DNA of 62,805 nt, filler included, from Craspedostauros australis (Eukaryota): assembly GCA_030167865.1 (NCBI GenBank). It is 7 parts of 7 records of this genome, joined end to end, with 100 filler letters (N's around TTAATTAATTAA, not from the genome) between each part and the next. Parts side by side here need not be neighbours in the genome. Positions count along the whole stretch, not along the records: positions 20,091 to 51,126 come from JALAGF010004143.1; 6 more parts are not named here. The stretch is one strand, 5' to 3'. Position 1 is the stretch's first letter; each line of letters begins with the position of its first letter. Below are positions 19,991-51,226 of the stretch, one piece after another. The position numbers and the translations under genes were made by a program. The notes below the pieces were generated by a model. It did no database searches, had not been told where the DNA came from, and worked only from the letters and a program-made list of their open reading frames with translations.

Positions 19991-20090
19991 NNNNNNNNNN
20001 NNNNNNNNNNNNNNNNNNNNNNNNNNNNNNNNNNTTAATTAATTAANNNNNNNNNNNNNNNNNNNNNNNNNNNNNNNNNNNNNNNNNNNN
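19991..20090. other. Artificial contig spacer N44-TTAATTAATTAA-N44 (also at 51127-51226, 54319-54418, 56665-56764, 58063-58162 and 59449-59548)
   Basis: Identical 100-bp construction six times. TTAATTAATTAA gives stop codons in all six frames. Confidence 0.98.
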
Positions 20091-32579: not shown

Positions 32580-35500
32580 ATGAAGACTGCGACGCACCAC
32601 AACAGCAGCGCGGCGCTCGCCATCACTGCTATCGCCGCTGTCATCGGCATCACATTCCTCCCGACAGCCCATGGCCATGGCCTCATGTACGAACCAGCCA
32701 CGCGCAATTACATCGCCAAGCTCGAAGGCAAGGAAGGTTCCCACGAGGGCGTCCCGCGCCCCGAGTACTGCGCACACTGCCTGCGAGACAATCGAGGATT
32801 CTGCGGATACGGCGAGAGTGGCATCAACTACGATGATTGGCCCGACTCAACGGGCAAGTCCATGCCATGGAAGTCCAGTGGCACCTACGAACAGGGCGGT
32901 ATTATTCAGATCCAGACCAACCTGTGGGCACATCACGGTGGTCACATGGAGCTCAAGGCGTGCGCGATGGGCAAAGATTCGACGCAAGAATGCATGGACA
33001 GTAACAAACTCACGTTCGTCTCGGATGAGCTGTACGGCATGCCAGCAGGTACGAATGGGTCGCAACGTTGAATAGTATTGCACAAGTGCGCAATGCGAGT
33101 GGTGTGTGTATACCATGCAACGCAAATGATGAATCCAATTGTTGAACCCAATTGATGAATCTAACACATCTCCATGCCCGTATGCTCCTTTTGTCTCGCC
33201 ACGTATGCCCATTGCTCATGAAATATCTACAACTGATTTGGGTTTGATGCAGATCCCAAGTACCCAGAACGCGGCTACTACTACGGCGGCGCTGGATGGA
33301 ACGGCTTTGACTTCGTCATGCAGTTCAAGCTCCCTGACGACTTGGTGGGCGACAAGGTCCTCCTGCAATGGCGATACATCACTGCCAACAGCTGCTCGCC
33401 ACCCGGGTACTCTGACTACTTCAGTAGCAACAATGATCTTCCAGACTACTTCTGGGGACCCACCCTTCTAAACTGTCCGATTCCAATCCCTTTGGACGGC
33501 GACACCACCAAGGGTCCGGAGGTGAGTGAATTCAGGCTCTACTGCCCACTCTGTTGCCCACTCTGCTGCTGCTACTACTACTGAGTGTGTTGTACATCGG
33601 CTCTGTCCATGTTCATGTCCATCTCCATGTGTATGTACATGTGCGCAGTTGTGCACAATGGATGGGCATGGTGGATATCATACACATCAACACCCTTCAG
33701 TCCGCACCCACCGCTCACCATTGCGCATCTCTTCCTGTCCGTTTCGCCCTTCGGTTTTCTTTCTCATCCCCTTGACTTTTCCTTCCCTCCCTCCCTTCCG
33801 TACTTCTCGCCATCGCAATCGCCGTATCCATCGATCCTTCCATCCATCCCTGTCCAATCCATCCATGCGCAACAACACCAACAGCAATTCTTCAACTGCG
33901 CCGAGATCACCATCACATCCAACGGAGACACCGATGAATCAGAAGAATTCGAATCCGGGGATGCACCATCCGACCCACCGACGAACGCGGACACCGCCAC
34001 GCCGACTGACGCACCCATCAGCCCACCAACGGGTGACGACGGGTCGGACCCGACAAAGGAAAGGCCCAAGCTCGTGGCCTACATGGGCAACTGGCACACG
34101 TGTCCCACCTACGATCAGTACAAGCACTACACCCACGTCATGATCGCCTTCGCAGTCAGTTACACCTGGTCTCCGTACAAGAACATTTGCTCTCAGACCT
34201 GCCAGATATCGAGGCCACCCGTGTGCAACGGCAACTCCAACATGATCAACGACCTGCACGCTGCGGGAGTCAAGGTCCTTCTCAGTTTCGGCGGCGCCGG
34301 CATGGGAGGATCCTGGGCCGGCGACATGAACGATTGCTGGGACTATTGCTTCGGACGTGAAGACCAGGTCATCGACCAACTCGTCACACATGTCAACGAC
34401 ATGAATCTGGACGGTATCGACATCGATTACGAATACTTCTACGAAGATGGGCAGAAAGGATCGTCCTTCTCGAAGGGCACGGAAGCGCAGTTCTTCCTGA
34501 AGGAAGTCACGCACGGTCTGCGACAGAAGCTGCCGCAGGACGCCATCATCACGCACACCCCGATGGACATCGACCTCCTGCCAACATCCGCCTACTTCAA
34601 GGCCATGCAGGAAGTGCGCGAAGACCTCTCCTTCATCATGCCGCAGTACTACAACGGTATCACAAGACCCTCCCAGACCGGGCTGACCGGATCGTACGGC
34701 AACAGCCCATCTCCGTTGACTCACATGCGCGACATCGCCCACGCCATGTTCGACGACGATGTCAGCAAGGTGATCTTCGGATTTTGCATTGCCGATTGCG
34801 GGTACACCGGATCCAACACTGGTGGACAGGACGCTTCCAGGATAATGAAAGAAGTCGCTGAACACAATGGTGGAAAGACCGGCGGTGCATTCTTCTGGGT
34901 CTCGATCGATGATGTCGCCGGTGCCTGGTCCGGCGAAGTCAAGGCGACGTTGGATGCCATTGCGGATTCCGGAGTTGTCACGACCAATCCACCAGCCGAC
35001 AAGGTGACTGAGGGACCAACCGCAGAACCAACTCCAACACCAACAAATGAACCGACAAATGAACCGACAAATTCACCGACAGATGAACCGACAAATTCAC
35101 CGACAGATGAACCGACATATTCACCGACAGATGAACCGACAGATGAACCGACGGAGTCGTCGGAATCGTCGGGTGAGGAACCAACGTCCGGCCCAACATC
35201 CCCACCAACAGACGCTGCAATCACCTCGCCGACAACCAATCCAACAAACAACCCAACAACAAATCCAACGGCGAACCCGACGAGCAACCCGACGGCTAAT
35301 CCAACGGATCAACCCACAGATGGTAACCCGGGCAGCGAGCTATGCAACGGTTGCGTCGGCAGCTCATCCGGCTACTGCAAGTCTGACCCCGGCGTCTGCT
35401 ACCCATATGCCTACGCATCCACCAAGACATGTTATCCTGGAACGTTCCGATGCGCAGGCAATGCAGCAACTACGGATCCCCCCACCCAACCGCCCACCCA

Positions 35501-35963
35501 ACCACCAACCAACTTGCGGACGGCTTCACCCACAATTACTCCCACCCAACCGCCCACACAGCCACCAACCAACTTGCGGACGGCTTCACCCACAATCACT
35601 CCCACGCAACCACCGACTGTTGCTCCCACACAGCCGCCCACAATCACTCCCACCCAACCACCAACTGTTACTCCCACCCAACCACCAACTCTGGCTCCCA
35701 CACGGTCGCCCACGCAAGGAGCCTGTGGCTTCGCCTGGGACACCTGCCATTCTCTGCACACGGGCGTCAGCTACAACAGCTGCTGTCCCGGATACGTGTG
35801 CACGCCCCATGACAAGTACACGTCGTACTGCCAGATCGATGACGGCTATCCTCACAATAACTGCCTGCTGTGGGGCGGGTATTGCTTGAACACGGAGAAC
35901 GATTGCTGCGTCGGATTGAAATGCGAAGGATCCGAGCATTACAAGCAATGCGTTTCCGTATGA
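32580..35963 (+). CDS. Secreted LPMO (AA15-like) - GH18 chitinase - PT linker - Cys-rich (CBM1-like) module fusion; exons 32580-33048, 33253-33521 and 33885-35963 (938 aa)
   Basis: Signal peptide ending TAHG followed by His1 (HGLMYEPATRN). LPMO motifs WAHHGGH, LLQWRYITANSC and PE|QFFNCAEI. GH18 motifs KVLLSFGG, DGIDIDYE and GAFFW. The GT-AG introns preserve frame. Confidence 0.88.
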
Positions 35964-36143
35964 AGCGCGTGCGTTCCGAGAGAGTGTTTCTTCATGGATC
36001 GTGAAGACTTCCGACCAGGACCCTACTCCTGCTATTCCACACAGTAGACGAAATGCAGAAGAGTAATATAAATAGCACATATAATAGATATACTCGAACA
36101 ACAGTTAATGTCACTATTGACGATATCATTATGCGACAGGACG

Positions 36144-37355
36144 CTATCTTGGCCGTGCAACGAGAAGTCCAACGACAAAGCACGACGTTGCGACCGTTGC
36201 TCCAAGCACGGCCGACGGAACGTCAATGCGCGCGATGTATTGCAGGGCCTGCGCCCGCAGTTTGTCCAAGCGATCCTCGTTGGATGCTGATTGATGTTCT
36301 TGCTGAGGTGGATCTTGTGCTGTGTTGTCATCTGCAGCTGATTCGGAAACTGGCATGGATGGCGCAGCATCATCCTTGTTCGGATGTCCATCAGTAGCAT
36401 CGTCATCGTTATCATCATGATTGTCATGTTGCTGTTCCTGCACAACCGCAACCTGCGATTCCCCAACACCACCCAATTTCGCATCCAACATGTTCTGTAG
36501 GACAAGAAGCTTATTGGTCTCGCGCTGCCAATGAAAGTACTGCGACGCCAGGAAGATGAGGGTATTCAATCCAATCAGCGACCACGTGCCGTAGGTGCCG
36601 ACGATCCGCCACTTCTCCTGCCAGATCTGCTCTTCATGATACCGCTTGCGCATGGCGTCGATATAATCATGCTGCAGCTGCGTGCATTGCGATTCCCGCG
36701 CTTGCAGCATGCGGGCGGCCTCATCGAGCGCATCGCGCACGGCCACTTCCCGTTGCAGCAAGGTGGCGTAATGCTGGGCATCATCCGCGGTCCATTCATG
36801 CCGTCGTCTGGACAAGGCGGCGTGCTGGCGTTGCACGTCCTGCTGCTGCAGCTGATGGTGGGCATGATCACGACGCGCCGTCAAGACGTCCTCCTGTGCT
36901 TTGTCGAAGGCGCGCGAGGCGTTGGAGACGAGCTGTTTGAGGGTGTAGATCTCGTTGGTGCCGGACGATTCGTTCCAGAAGTCGAGGATGGTGTTCCAGG
37001 CGGAGGATGTCGTTGGGCTGCGGTCGATGGTGCTATTTGCTGTGGTTGTAGGTTGGGCGCTCTCACGCGCAGAGTCATGCTTGCCTGCGCCATTGCTTGT
37101 CAACTCTCGCCGCTGCTGCAGATGCAACTGCATCCATGGTGGCTGTGACTGCGTGAAGAGCGACCTTGCAGGGATCCACCGGATCTGCCGAAACAAGGGA
37201 CGTCCAGAACGCATGGTGCTGGTCGATGCGCTCTTGGCGAGAGTAAGGTATGCGCACCTTCCACACCAAGCGTGCAGTACCTTGGTTGTGTCCGGCATGC
37301 CTTGAGTTGTGTTGTTTGTTGTTGGCTTTTGTTGTTTGTTGTCGTTGGGTTCCAA
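36144..37355 (-). CDS. SHE9: She9/Mdm33-family mitochondrial inner-membrane protein
   Basis: Coiled coil with RRHEWTADDAQHYATL, motif RYHEEQIWQEKWR..GTYGTWSLIGLN, C-terminal TM segment and Arg/Ser-rich presequence-like region. Start codon uncertain. Confidence 0.82.
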   Translation of the reverse strand: MEPNDNKQQKPTTNNTTQGMPDTTKVLHAWCGRCAYLTLAKSASTSTMRSGRPLFRQIRWIPARSLFTQSQPPWMQLHLQQRRELTSNGAGKHDSARESAQPTTTANSTIDRSPTTSSAWNTILDFWNESSGTNEIYTLKQLVSNASRAFDKAQEDVLTARRDHAHHQLQQQDVQRQHAALSRRRHEWTADDAQHYATLLQREVAVRDALDEAARMLQARESQCTQLQHDYIDAMRKRYHEEQIWQEKWRIVGTYGTWSLIGLNTLIFLASQYFHWQRETNKLLVLQNMLDAKLGGVGESQVAVVQEQQHDNHDDNDDDATDGHPNKDDAAPSMPVSESAADDNTAQDPPQQEHQSASNEDRLDKLRAQALQYIARIDVPSAVLGATVATSCFVVGLLVARPR

Positions 37356-37886
37356 TGGGACATGATGAATGGCGCGAAAATGGAAAGTTCTCTTCTGTTA
37401 CCCATAGACTTCGTTAGGCGTATTCTGACGTCAAATACGATCCTACTCAACACGGAATGAACGGTTTCAATAGAAACAGTGCTTTATTTTCTCGCAACTC
37501 CATGAATTTCGCCAAACCCAAGTGTTCGCACACAGTCCACGGTTTCGCGCCAGGTTGAGGATGACCGCAGTCTTACGATCACGATGACCTGGTTCCATTC
37601 GCGTGTTGCTGTGTGCGAAACAACGATTGTTCACCAGACCCGTCGCACTACAGAGACATTTCCACCAACATCAAAGAAGGAGCAAGACACGAGGCACATC
37701 TATTCTGCATCACCAAAGACGCAAAGGTGCGCATCCAAAGGCCCGTCTCTTCCGATGCCATTGCAACTCACCAAGACACTCGCAACTCACCAAGACGCTT
37801 CCACCTCACCAACATCCTCATAATCCTCATAATCCATTGCACACAACTCATTGCACACAACTCATTGCACACATGCAACAACAACA

Positions 37887-51126: not shown

Positions 51127-51226
51127 NNNNNNNNNNNNNNNNNNNNNNNNNNNNNNNNNNNNNNNNNNNNTTAATTAATTAANNNNNNNNNNNNNNNNNN
51201 NNNNNNNNNNNNNNNNNNNNNNNNNN

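Follow-up and report, generated by a model that had tools for sequence, protein, structure and literature searches.

Gene structure and domain layout

The window analysed here, a stretch of 62,805 nucleotides from Craspedostauros australis (assembly GCA_030167865.1), contains at positions 32580-35963 of the plus strand a gene whose product joins a lytic polysaccharide monooxygenase (LPMO) domain of AA15 type to a GH18 chitinase domain. The LPMO-GH18 gene consists of three exons at 32580-33048 (469 nt), 33253-33521 (269 nt) and 33885-35963 (2079 nt), separated by GT-AG introns of 204 nt (33049-33252) and 363 nt (33522-33884). Among the splice positions tried, a single GT-AG combination fits, namely this three-exon model, whose spliced product comprises 938 aa. 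The in-frame joining of three pieces into such a protein, claimed in an earlier note on this DNA, is borne out by this unique combination and by the introns of paralogous genes.

The coding sequence opens with a predicted signal peptide (residues 1-32, 32580-32675; hydrophobic core at residues 8-21) that ends in A-H-G before His33; in all 30 aligned homologs a comparable leader is likewise followed directly by His. The LPMO domain is spread over all three exons. Exon 1 encodes the part with His33 (32676-32678), Ala117 and His119 (32934-32936), assigned by Pfam, profile and homologs (32676-33048); exon 2 encodes the middle part, which ends in Glu246 and has 59-62% identity to the paralogs L008 and L009; and the beginning of exon 3 (33885-33917) encodes the final strand with the axial Phe248 (33888-33890) and Cys251, placed by homologs and by alignment to the E-E-Y stretch of TdAA15A from Thermobia. 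An acidic, Pro/Thr-rich linker (33918-34061), with low pLDDT in the model of a homolog, leads to the GH18 catalytic domain of about 300 aa (34062-34964), whose DxxDxDxE motif lies at 34410-34433. A second linker of PT repeats (34965-35342; Pfam PT disordered repeat) is followed by a six-cysteine (6-Cys) module (35343-35453, C733-C769), a candidate for glycan binding, by a third linker of PTQP repeats (35454-35723), and by two knottin-type 6-Cys modules. The first of these (35724-35831, C860-C895) has only weak matches to inhibitor cystine knot (ICK) families, and the second (35862-35951, C906-C935), identified by its Cys pattern, homologs and profile, contains Trp909 and His931-Tyr932. The spliced sequence confirms a His directly after the leader, the second His, an E-x-F motif split by intron 2 and an intact DxxDxDxE, all as the earlier note had read them. 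Its internal module of five Cys contains six (733, 736, 744, 751, 762 and 769), and its two Pro/Thr linkers are three.

The genome harbors three further LPMO genes of AA15 type (L007 on contig C547, L008 on C4545 and L009 on C6675). All three have intron 1 at the same codon position, and L008 and L009 also share the position of intron 2. In L007, which has the same five-module layout, intron 2 is missing and the reading frame continues uninterrupted. Because the intron positions recur in the paralogs and L007 reads through, the three-exon model is not a product of chance. A transcriptome-derived protein, P0003, likewise carries LPMO, GH18, 6-Cys module and both knottins on one chain, with 64-68% identity to L007. 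Exon 3 supplies the final LPMO strand, including the axial Phe, in the frame of the GH18 domain, and barring other splicing no complete LPMO can therefore be made without the chitinase. The locus is one real three-exon gene that encodes a single secreted LPMO and GH18 chain. L008 and L009 are LPMO-only paralogs, the latter with a 6-Cys module; the hydrophobic C-terminal tail of L008 could serve as a membrane or glycosylphosphatidylinositol anchor.

A sequencing run (X1), which we guess to be RNA and whose contigs carry no strand information, provides two contigs on LPMO-type sequences. One of them (415 nt) is identical, with 0 differences, to positions 35662-36076, that is, to the 3' end of the coding sequence and a probable 3' untranslated region; no depth is seen in bins past 36115. 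The other is a transcript of L008 with the matching intron 2 removed: its anchors are separated by 519 nt in the genome but by about 239 nt in the contig, as expected for the L008 intron of 280 nt (519 - 280 = 239). Neither contig crosses the LPMO-GH18 gene's own junctions (33048/33253 and 33521/33885).

Catalytic domains

Exon 1 matches Pfam LPMO_10 above the cut-off (E 2.9e-7). A profile of 31 homologs searched against known structures finds TdAA15A (5msz) at E 1.2e-12, and none of its 18 matches at E<=0.1 is an AA10 chain. Among 30 full-length fused homologs, all conserve His33, His119, Glu246, Phe248 and five Cys (Cys251 included), and 27 conserve Ala117. His119 lies within A-H-H (an A-x-H motif), and intron 2 divides E246 from Q247-F248. 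Ala117, His119 and Phe248 align as counterparts of Ala89, His91 and Tyr184 of TdAA15A, residues that are described together with its His1 in PMC5823890, where an axial Phe is tied to chitin-active LPMOs. By these sequence characters the LPMO is of AA15 type rather than AA10. TdAA15A and TdAA15B of Thermobia share the His1, A-x-H and E-x-aromatic signature, the former (5MSZ) being the best LPMO structure match of the family profile. The axial residue is Phe here, as in TdAA15B, whereas it is Tyr184 in TdAA15A; the domain comprises about 225 residues versus 201, has a different set of Cys, and is fused, in contrast to the single-domain TdAA15A. An AlphaFold2 (AF2) model of the homolog P0003 consists of a confident beta-rich LPMO domain and a confident GH18 domain, with linkers and Cys modules unresolved; fold searches with this full model returned GH18-type barrels only.

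The GH18 domain matches Pfam Glyco_hydro_18 on exon 3 (E 1.8e-12) with DxxDxDxE intact at residues 422-429. D422, D425, D427, E429, Y502 and W584 are conserved in 30 of 30 homologs. The domain contains no chitin insertion domain, and the Tyr and Trp of the -1 subsite (Y502 and W584) are present. Its closest solved structure is Chi23 of Pseudoalteromonas aurantia (6K7Z, GH18 subfamily B), both by sequence (E 1.5e-10) and by fold of the homolog model (Z 29.9, rmsd 2.2, 264 of the 277 residues of 6K7Z aligned). According to PMC6831621, Chi23 acts on crystalline chitin as an endochitinase of the non-processive type. Both are short TIM barrels, and the catalytic Glu and four of seven named binding residues are kept: Glu117, Tyr189, Asn190, Asp229 and Trp260 of Chi23 correspond to E429, Y502, N503, D550 and W584, including the Asp229 that the same source calls unique to Chi23; Asn9 falls outside the alignment. 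The two differ in that identity is about 20% and in that the diatom domain has extra Cys-rich loops and is part of a multi-modular, eukaryotic protein. A weak match to the EndoS barrel stays below the cut-off. In the fold search, endo-beta-N-acetylglucosaminidases are placed lower than chitinases, and plant class III defence chitinases are found among the structural neighbours. From motif and fold we infer a Chi23-like, shallow-cleft enzyme with predicted non-processive endochitinase activity.

Occurrence of LPMO-GH18 fusions

A search with the GH18 domain found 311 relatives, of which 120 were listed. The same LPMO type is present on 39 of these 120, among them proteins of Seminavis robusta and Pseudo-nitzschia multistriata, and many of the listed relatives end in CBM14 or hevein domains. 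AA15-GH18 fusions are stated for Chlorophyta, Bacillariophyceae and tunicates (Sabbadin et al. 2018, PMC5823890), and LPMO_10 is named among the domains of Thalassiosira chitinases (PMC7874618, PMC12028343). Judged from these sequences and reports, the AA15-GH18 architecture is known from earlier work and widespread among diatoms. The earlier note was right that the pairing alone is not new, and its view of the host setting as surprising does not hold, as the fusion is already named for Bacillariophyceae (PMC5823890) and occurs in pennates. The protein described here resembles the reported fusions in its N-terminal AA15-type His-brace LPMO followed by GH18, in a diatom; its tail consists of a 6-Cys module and two knottins, whereas that of many relatives is CBM14 or hevein.

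According to PMC10154629, the one bicatalytic LPMO characterised is bacterial, Jd1381 of Jonesia denitrificans (AA10-CBM5-GH18), whose full-length form outperforms the separate domains. Jd1381 likewise combines oxidative and hydrolytic chitin activity on one chain, and thereby offers a model for synergy; in contrast to the diatom protein, it is built from a bacterial AA10 and a CBM5, with the binding module between the catalytic domains. The two fusions presumably have separate origins. Our literature search brought up no biochemical characterisation of a diatom or other eukaryotic LPMO-GH18 fusion enzyme, and the protein is a usable test case for oxidative and hydrolytic chitin breakdown on one chain outside bacteria.

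Seven proteins (P0062, P0065, P0071, P0080, P0086, P0089 and P0093) combine a GH18 of the same clade with an LPMO of another type. The LPMO of P0062 is a CBP21-like AA10 of bacterial type, and two of the seven also carry GH5. In a quick GH18 tree the seven proteins group with sequences of Diplonema (support 99). The different LPMO type and this grouping suggest a second, independent LPMO-GH18 fusion.

Cysteine-rich modules

The internal 6-Cys module matches no Pfam family above the cut-off. Two single-sequence searches of the genome identify five genes that carry it, which is a lower bound: the LPMO-GH18 gene, L007, L009, a gene encoding the secreted protein P0136 (two copies) and L039 (two copies). 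All five encode LPMO, GH18 or GH19-motif proteins. A profile search retrieves 126 representatives at E<=0.001, with tandem arrays frequent, and 349 copies of the module conserve the six Cys, one Gly and two neighbouring aromatic positions. A Pfam scan of 125 module proteins gives 35 with any match, of which 16 are to TSP1 and six to a chitin-related family. One carrier is an LPMO of Choanoeca flexa. By these sequence comparisons the module is a general extracellular one, linked to chitin-enzyme-like proteins in this genome, not everywhere. Among the secreted carriers (P0298-P0422) are arrays of up to 16 copies, joined to TSP1, lysyl oxidase, hevein, laminin G or HYR domains.

The AF2 model of the module has a pLDDT of 87. 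Neither Foldseek nor, at Z>=2, VIA returned a match for the 45-residue model, although a model this small proves little about a new fold; a search of the ESM Atlas with the module returned nothing usable. A similar description is that of X473, a module with six Cys in less than 40 residues, found on AA15, GH18 and GH19 proteins and proposed as a chitin binder (PMC8393829). By description alone, X473 and X474 share with the present module that they are short, Cys-rich and attached to these same enzyme families. They are reported from Saprolegniales only, whereas the module described here is present in both a diatom and a choanoflagellate. We regard the 6-Cys module, which is small and predicted to fold well, as a candidate for a new family of binding modules.

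The two C-terminal modules have knottin-type Cys spacing, a pattern found in 17 of the 120 listed GH18 relatives (two hevein-type matches dropped). The earlier note had called them CBM1-like and proposed a mixed chitin and cellulose target. None of 19 aligned knottin modules matches Pfam CBM_1 at E<=1, and related modules in P0086 and P0062 (E 0.018 and 4.1) stay below the cut-off. Targeting of cellulose is therefore unsupported. Across the C-terminal 20 of its 31 positions, the knottin profile matches CBM1 chains of Trichoderma (E 0.006-0.013). Tachystatin B scores on the same level (E 0.009), and many other knottins also match. Tachystatins are chitin-binding peptides. What CBM1, tachystatin B and other ICK peptides have in common with the present modules is the Cys spacing and aromatic residues near the C-terminus. 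The modules differ from CBM1 in the lack of a Pfam match and of the QCGG-type start that CBM1 has. The second knottin contains Trp, His and Tyr, where many homologs have Trp and Trp/Tyr-Tyr. The knottins are likely to take part in substrate binding, judging from their sequences. A search of the ESM Atlas with the C-terminus gave knottin-like leads below 0.9 only. Venom toxins, which appear among the knottin matches, were rejected as a functional lead, as their names mirror Cys spacing.

Chitin-related genes of the host

Ten matches, two of them in one frame, mark at least nine loci for chitin synthases in the genome. Five synthases lie, in both orientations, within about 55 kb of contig C4961 (G000:C4961:1-56000, L026-L032), and four more loci are found elsewhere. 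Inspection of motifs covered eight of the nine loci (all except that on C4012): QxxEY, GEDR and QRRRW are all present in the six synthases translated, and QRRRW in two more. In both synthases checked for it, a cytochrome-b5 domain is found upstream. The identities between the synthase cores range from 65 to 98%, and the genes are therefore paralogs, not alleles. One synthase is identical over 976 aa to a transcriptome-derived protein. The first part of the transcriptome-derived synthase P0178 equals that of L013 and its second part corresponds to L031, so that P0178 is probably a chimera of these paralogs created during assembly.

The closest named relative of the synthases is from Fistulifera solaris (62%, versus 56% for Thalassiosira). 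All eight synthases in a quick tree fall on the Fistulifera side, apart from Thalassiosirales, which fits a raphid pennate host and agrees with the earlier note, for which the host was apparently a pennate. Chitin synthases are reported in raphid pennates (PMC10134812, PMC5932028). The implication that such a host has no chitin of its own is a weak premise in view of at least nine synthase loci, and a genome of pennate type with this many synthases makes the use of chitin by pennates a testable question.

Amid the five synthases on C4961 lies the gene for P0136 (32399-30357), a secreted protein with two 6-Cys modules and the motifs F-x-x-Q-x-x-x-E, GRG-x-x-Q and N-x-G-C, which we take to be reminiscent of GH19. 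Secreted proteins with such GH19-like motifs, P0136 among them, form a four-member family (L029:4357-6399, L037, L038 and L039) with 49-51% identity and differing Cys-rich tails, of which L040 is a decayed copy; searches of this family against Pfam and PDB gave no match. The Pfam GH19 genes L034 and L035 are distinct in their additions, one with an EGF domain and one with a hydrophobic C-terminal tail. A third GH18 gene (L016:1345-2604; G000:C3586:65267) lacks the catalytic Glu of the motif and encodes a chitinase-like protein. About 22 kb from it lies an intron-free gene for a secreted AA10 (L045:1213-2601; G000:C3586:87916), to which the bacterial structures 9i1u (E 4e-73) and 6rw7 are close; acquisition by gene transfer is possible.

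Mechanism and substrate

Splicing, as given by the gene model, followed by cleavage of the signal peptide would expose His33 as the N-terminal residue. His33 and His119 would hold the copper, with Phe248 as axial and Glu246 as second-sphere residue, and, by analogy with the chemistry of AA15 and AA10 enzymes, crystalline chitin would be nicked oxidatively. The tethered GH18 domain would hydrolyse the loosened chains, while the 6-Cys module and both knottins may anchor the enzyme to its substrate. We consider it very probable, from the combined sequence and model evidence, that the secreted protein goes through these steps of cleavage, oxidation and hydrolysis, that is, that it breaks down crystalline chitin by copper-dependent nicking and by hydrolysis through a tethered endochitinase.

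The identity of the substrate is less certain. We lean slightly towards the alga's own chitin as the main target, which by the gene content of the genome would be wall, girdle or mucilage chitin produced by the expanded synthases. The case is circumstantial. The genome has many chitin synthases, and the 6-Cys module of the LPMO-GH18 protein occurs twice on P0136, within the synthase cluster. Of the two roles proposed in the earlier note, remodelling of the wall or of own chitin thus gains support from the synthases and the shared module, and defence is not favoured. Several observations weigh against an own-chitin target. Synthase genes occur in other diatoms for which fibres are not known, as stated in PMC4584364. 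The genome yields only at least three Pfam GH18 matches, one of them with a degenerate motif, and at least two of Pfam GH19. P0136 has no significant match to GH19 by Pfam, PDB profile or hhalign, so that its assignment consists of motifs. The LPMO-GH18 gene is not beside a synthase; its neighbours include a She9/Mdm33 gene and long low-complexity open reading frames (ORFs). Outside this genome most carriers of the 6-Cys module are not chitin enzymes (16 of 125 with TSP1 versus six of 125 with a chitin-related family). In the GH18 domain, Gln157 and Gln261 of Chi23 are replaced. The same GH18 clade is found in Diplonema, a heterotroph, and enzymes of this clade can therefore serve to attack foreign chitin.

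Second in rank, and distinctly less probable than remodelling of own chitin, is the same chemistry directed at a foreign target, namely chytrid parasites or environmental chitin in the biofilm (fungi, arthropod remains or the fibres of other diatoms). The protein is predicted to be secreted and soluble, with no membrane anchor; GH18 domains of the shallow-cleft kind include the plant class III defence chitinases; the clade is shared with Diplonema, where, or in relatives of which, it is joined to AA10 of bacterial type; and the present genome also encodes a bacterial-type AA10. A role of secreted diatom chitinases in the response to pathogens is a matter of speculation in PMC7874618. These points are set against the large synthase family of the alga itself, the module in common with a gene of the synthase cluster, and the small number of Pfam GH18 matches (at least three), which do not form an expanded arsenal.

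An enzyme for both chitin and cellulose, in which the knottins act as CBM1s aimed at cellulose (for example in the walls of oomycete parasites or on the surfaces of host algae), is improbable. To our knowledge, GH18 domains do not cleave cellulose. The similarity of the knottin profile to CBM1 and the many homologs with one N-terminal and two C-terminal aromatics would suit such a target, as would the activity of TdAA15A on both polymers and the existence of AA15-CBM1 fusions (PMC5823890); however, tachystatin B and other knottins score equally well or better, Pfam CBM_1 is not matched by any of the modules, and the axial Phe fits chitin-active LPMOs, in contrast to the Tyr of the cellulose-active TdAA15A. 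Finally, two genes or a mis-joined model are hardly credible: no read or contig of X1 spans the junctions of the gene itself, but the last LPMO strand shares the exon-3 frame with GH18, L007 lacks intron 2, P0003 unites the five modules on a single chain, and intron 2 of L008 is spliced in X1.

Returning to own chitin as the preferred target, a broader scenario may be proposed tentatively, and we regard it as rather unlikely in its full extent: that this raphid-pennate-like diatom possesses its own chitin system, in which a lineage-expanded set of at least nine synthases of cytochrome-b5 type, five of them on one contig around a secreted GH19-motif enzyme, would build a chitin structure undescribed for pennates, and in which the LPMO-GH18 enzyme would remodel this structure, guided by an undescribed 6-Cys family of carbohydrate-binding modules common to three unrelated enzyme folds and distributed from choanoflagellates to algae.

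Genomic context

The LPMO-GH18 gene lies on contig C4143, which occupies positions 20091-51126 of the window. Runs of N (paired 44-nt) are located at 19991-20090 and 51127-51226, with more up to 59548. The convergent neighbour on the minus strand (36144-37397) is a gene of the She9/Mdm33 family that ends 180 nt from the LPMO-GH18 stop. The ORFs at 1-1710 and 21882-20038 resemble pieces of similar transporter genes.

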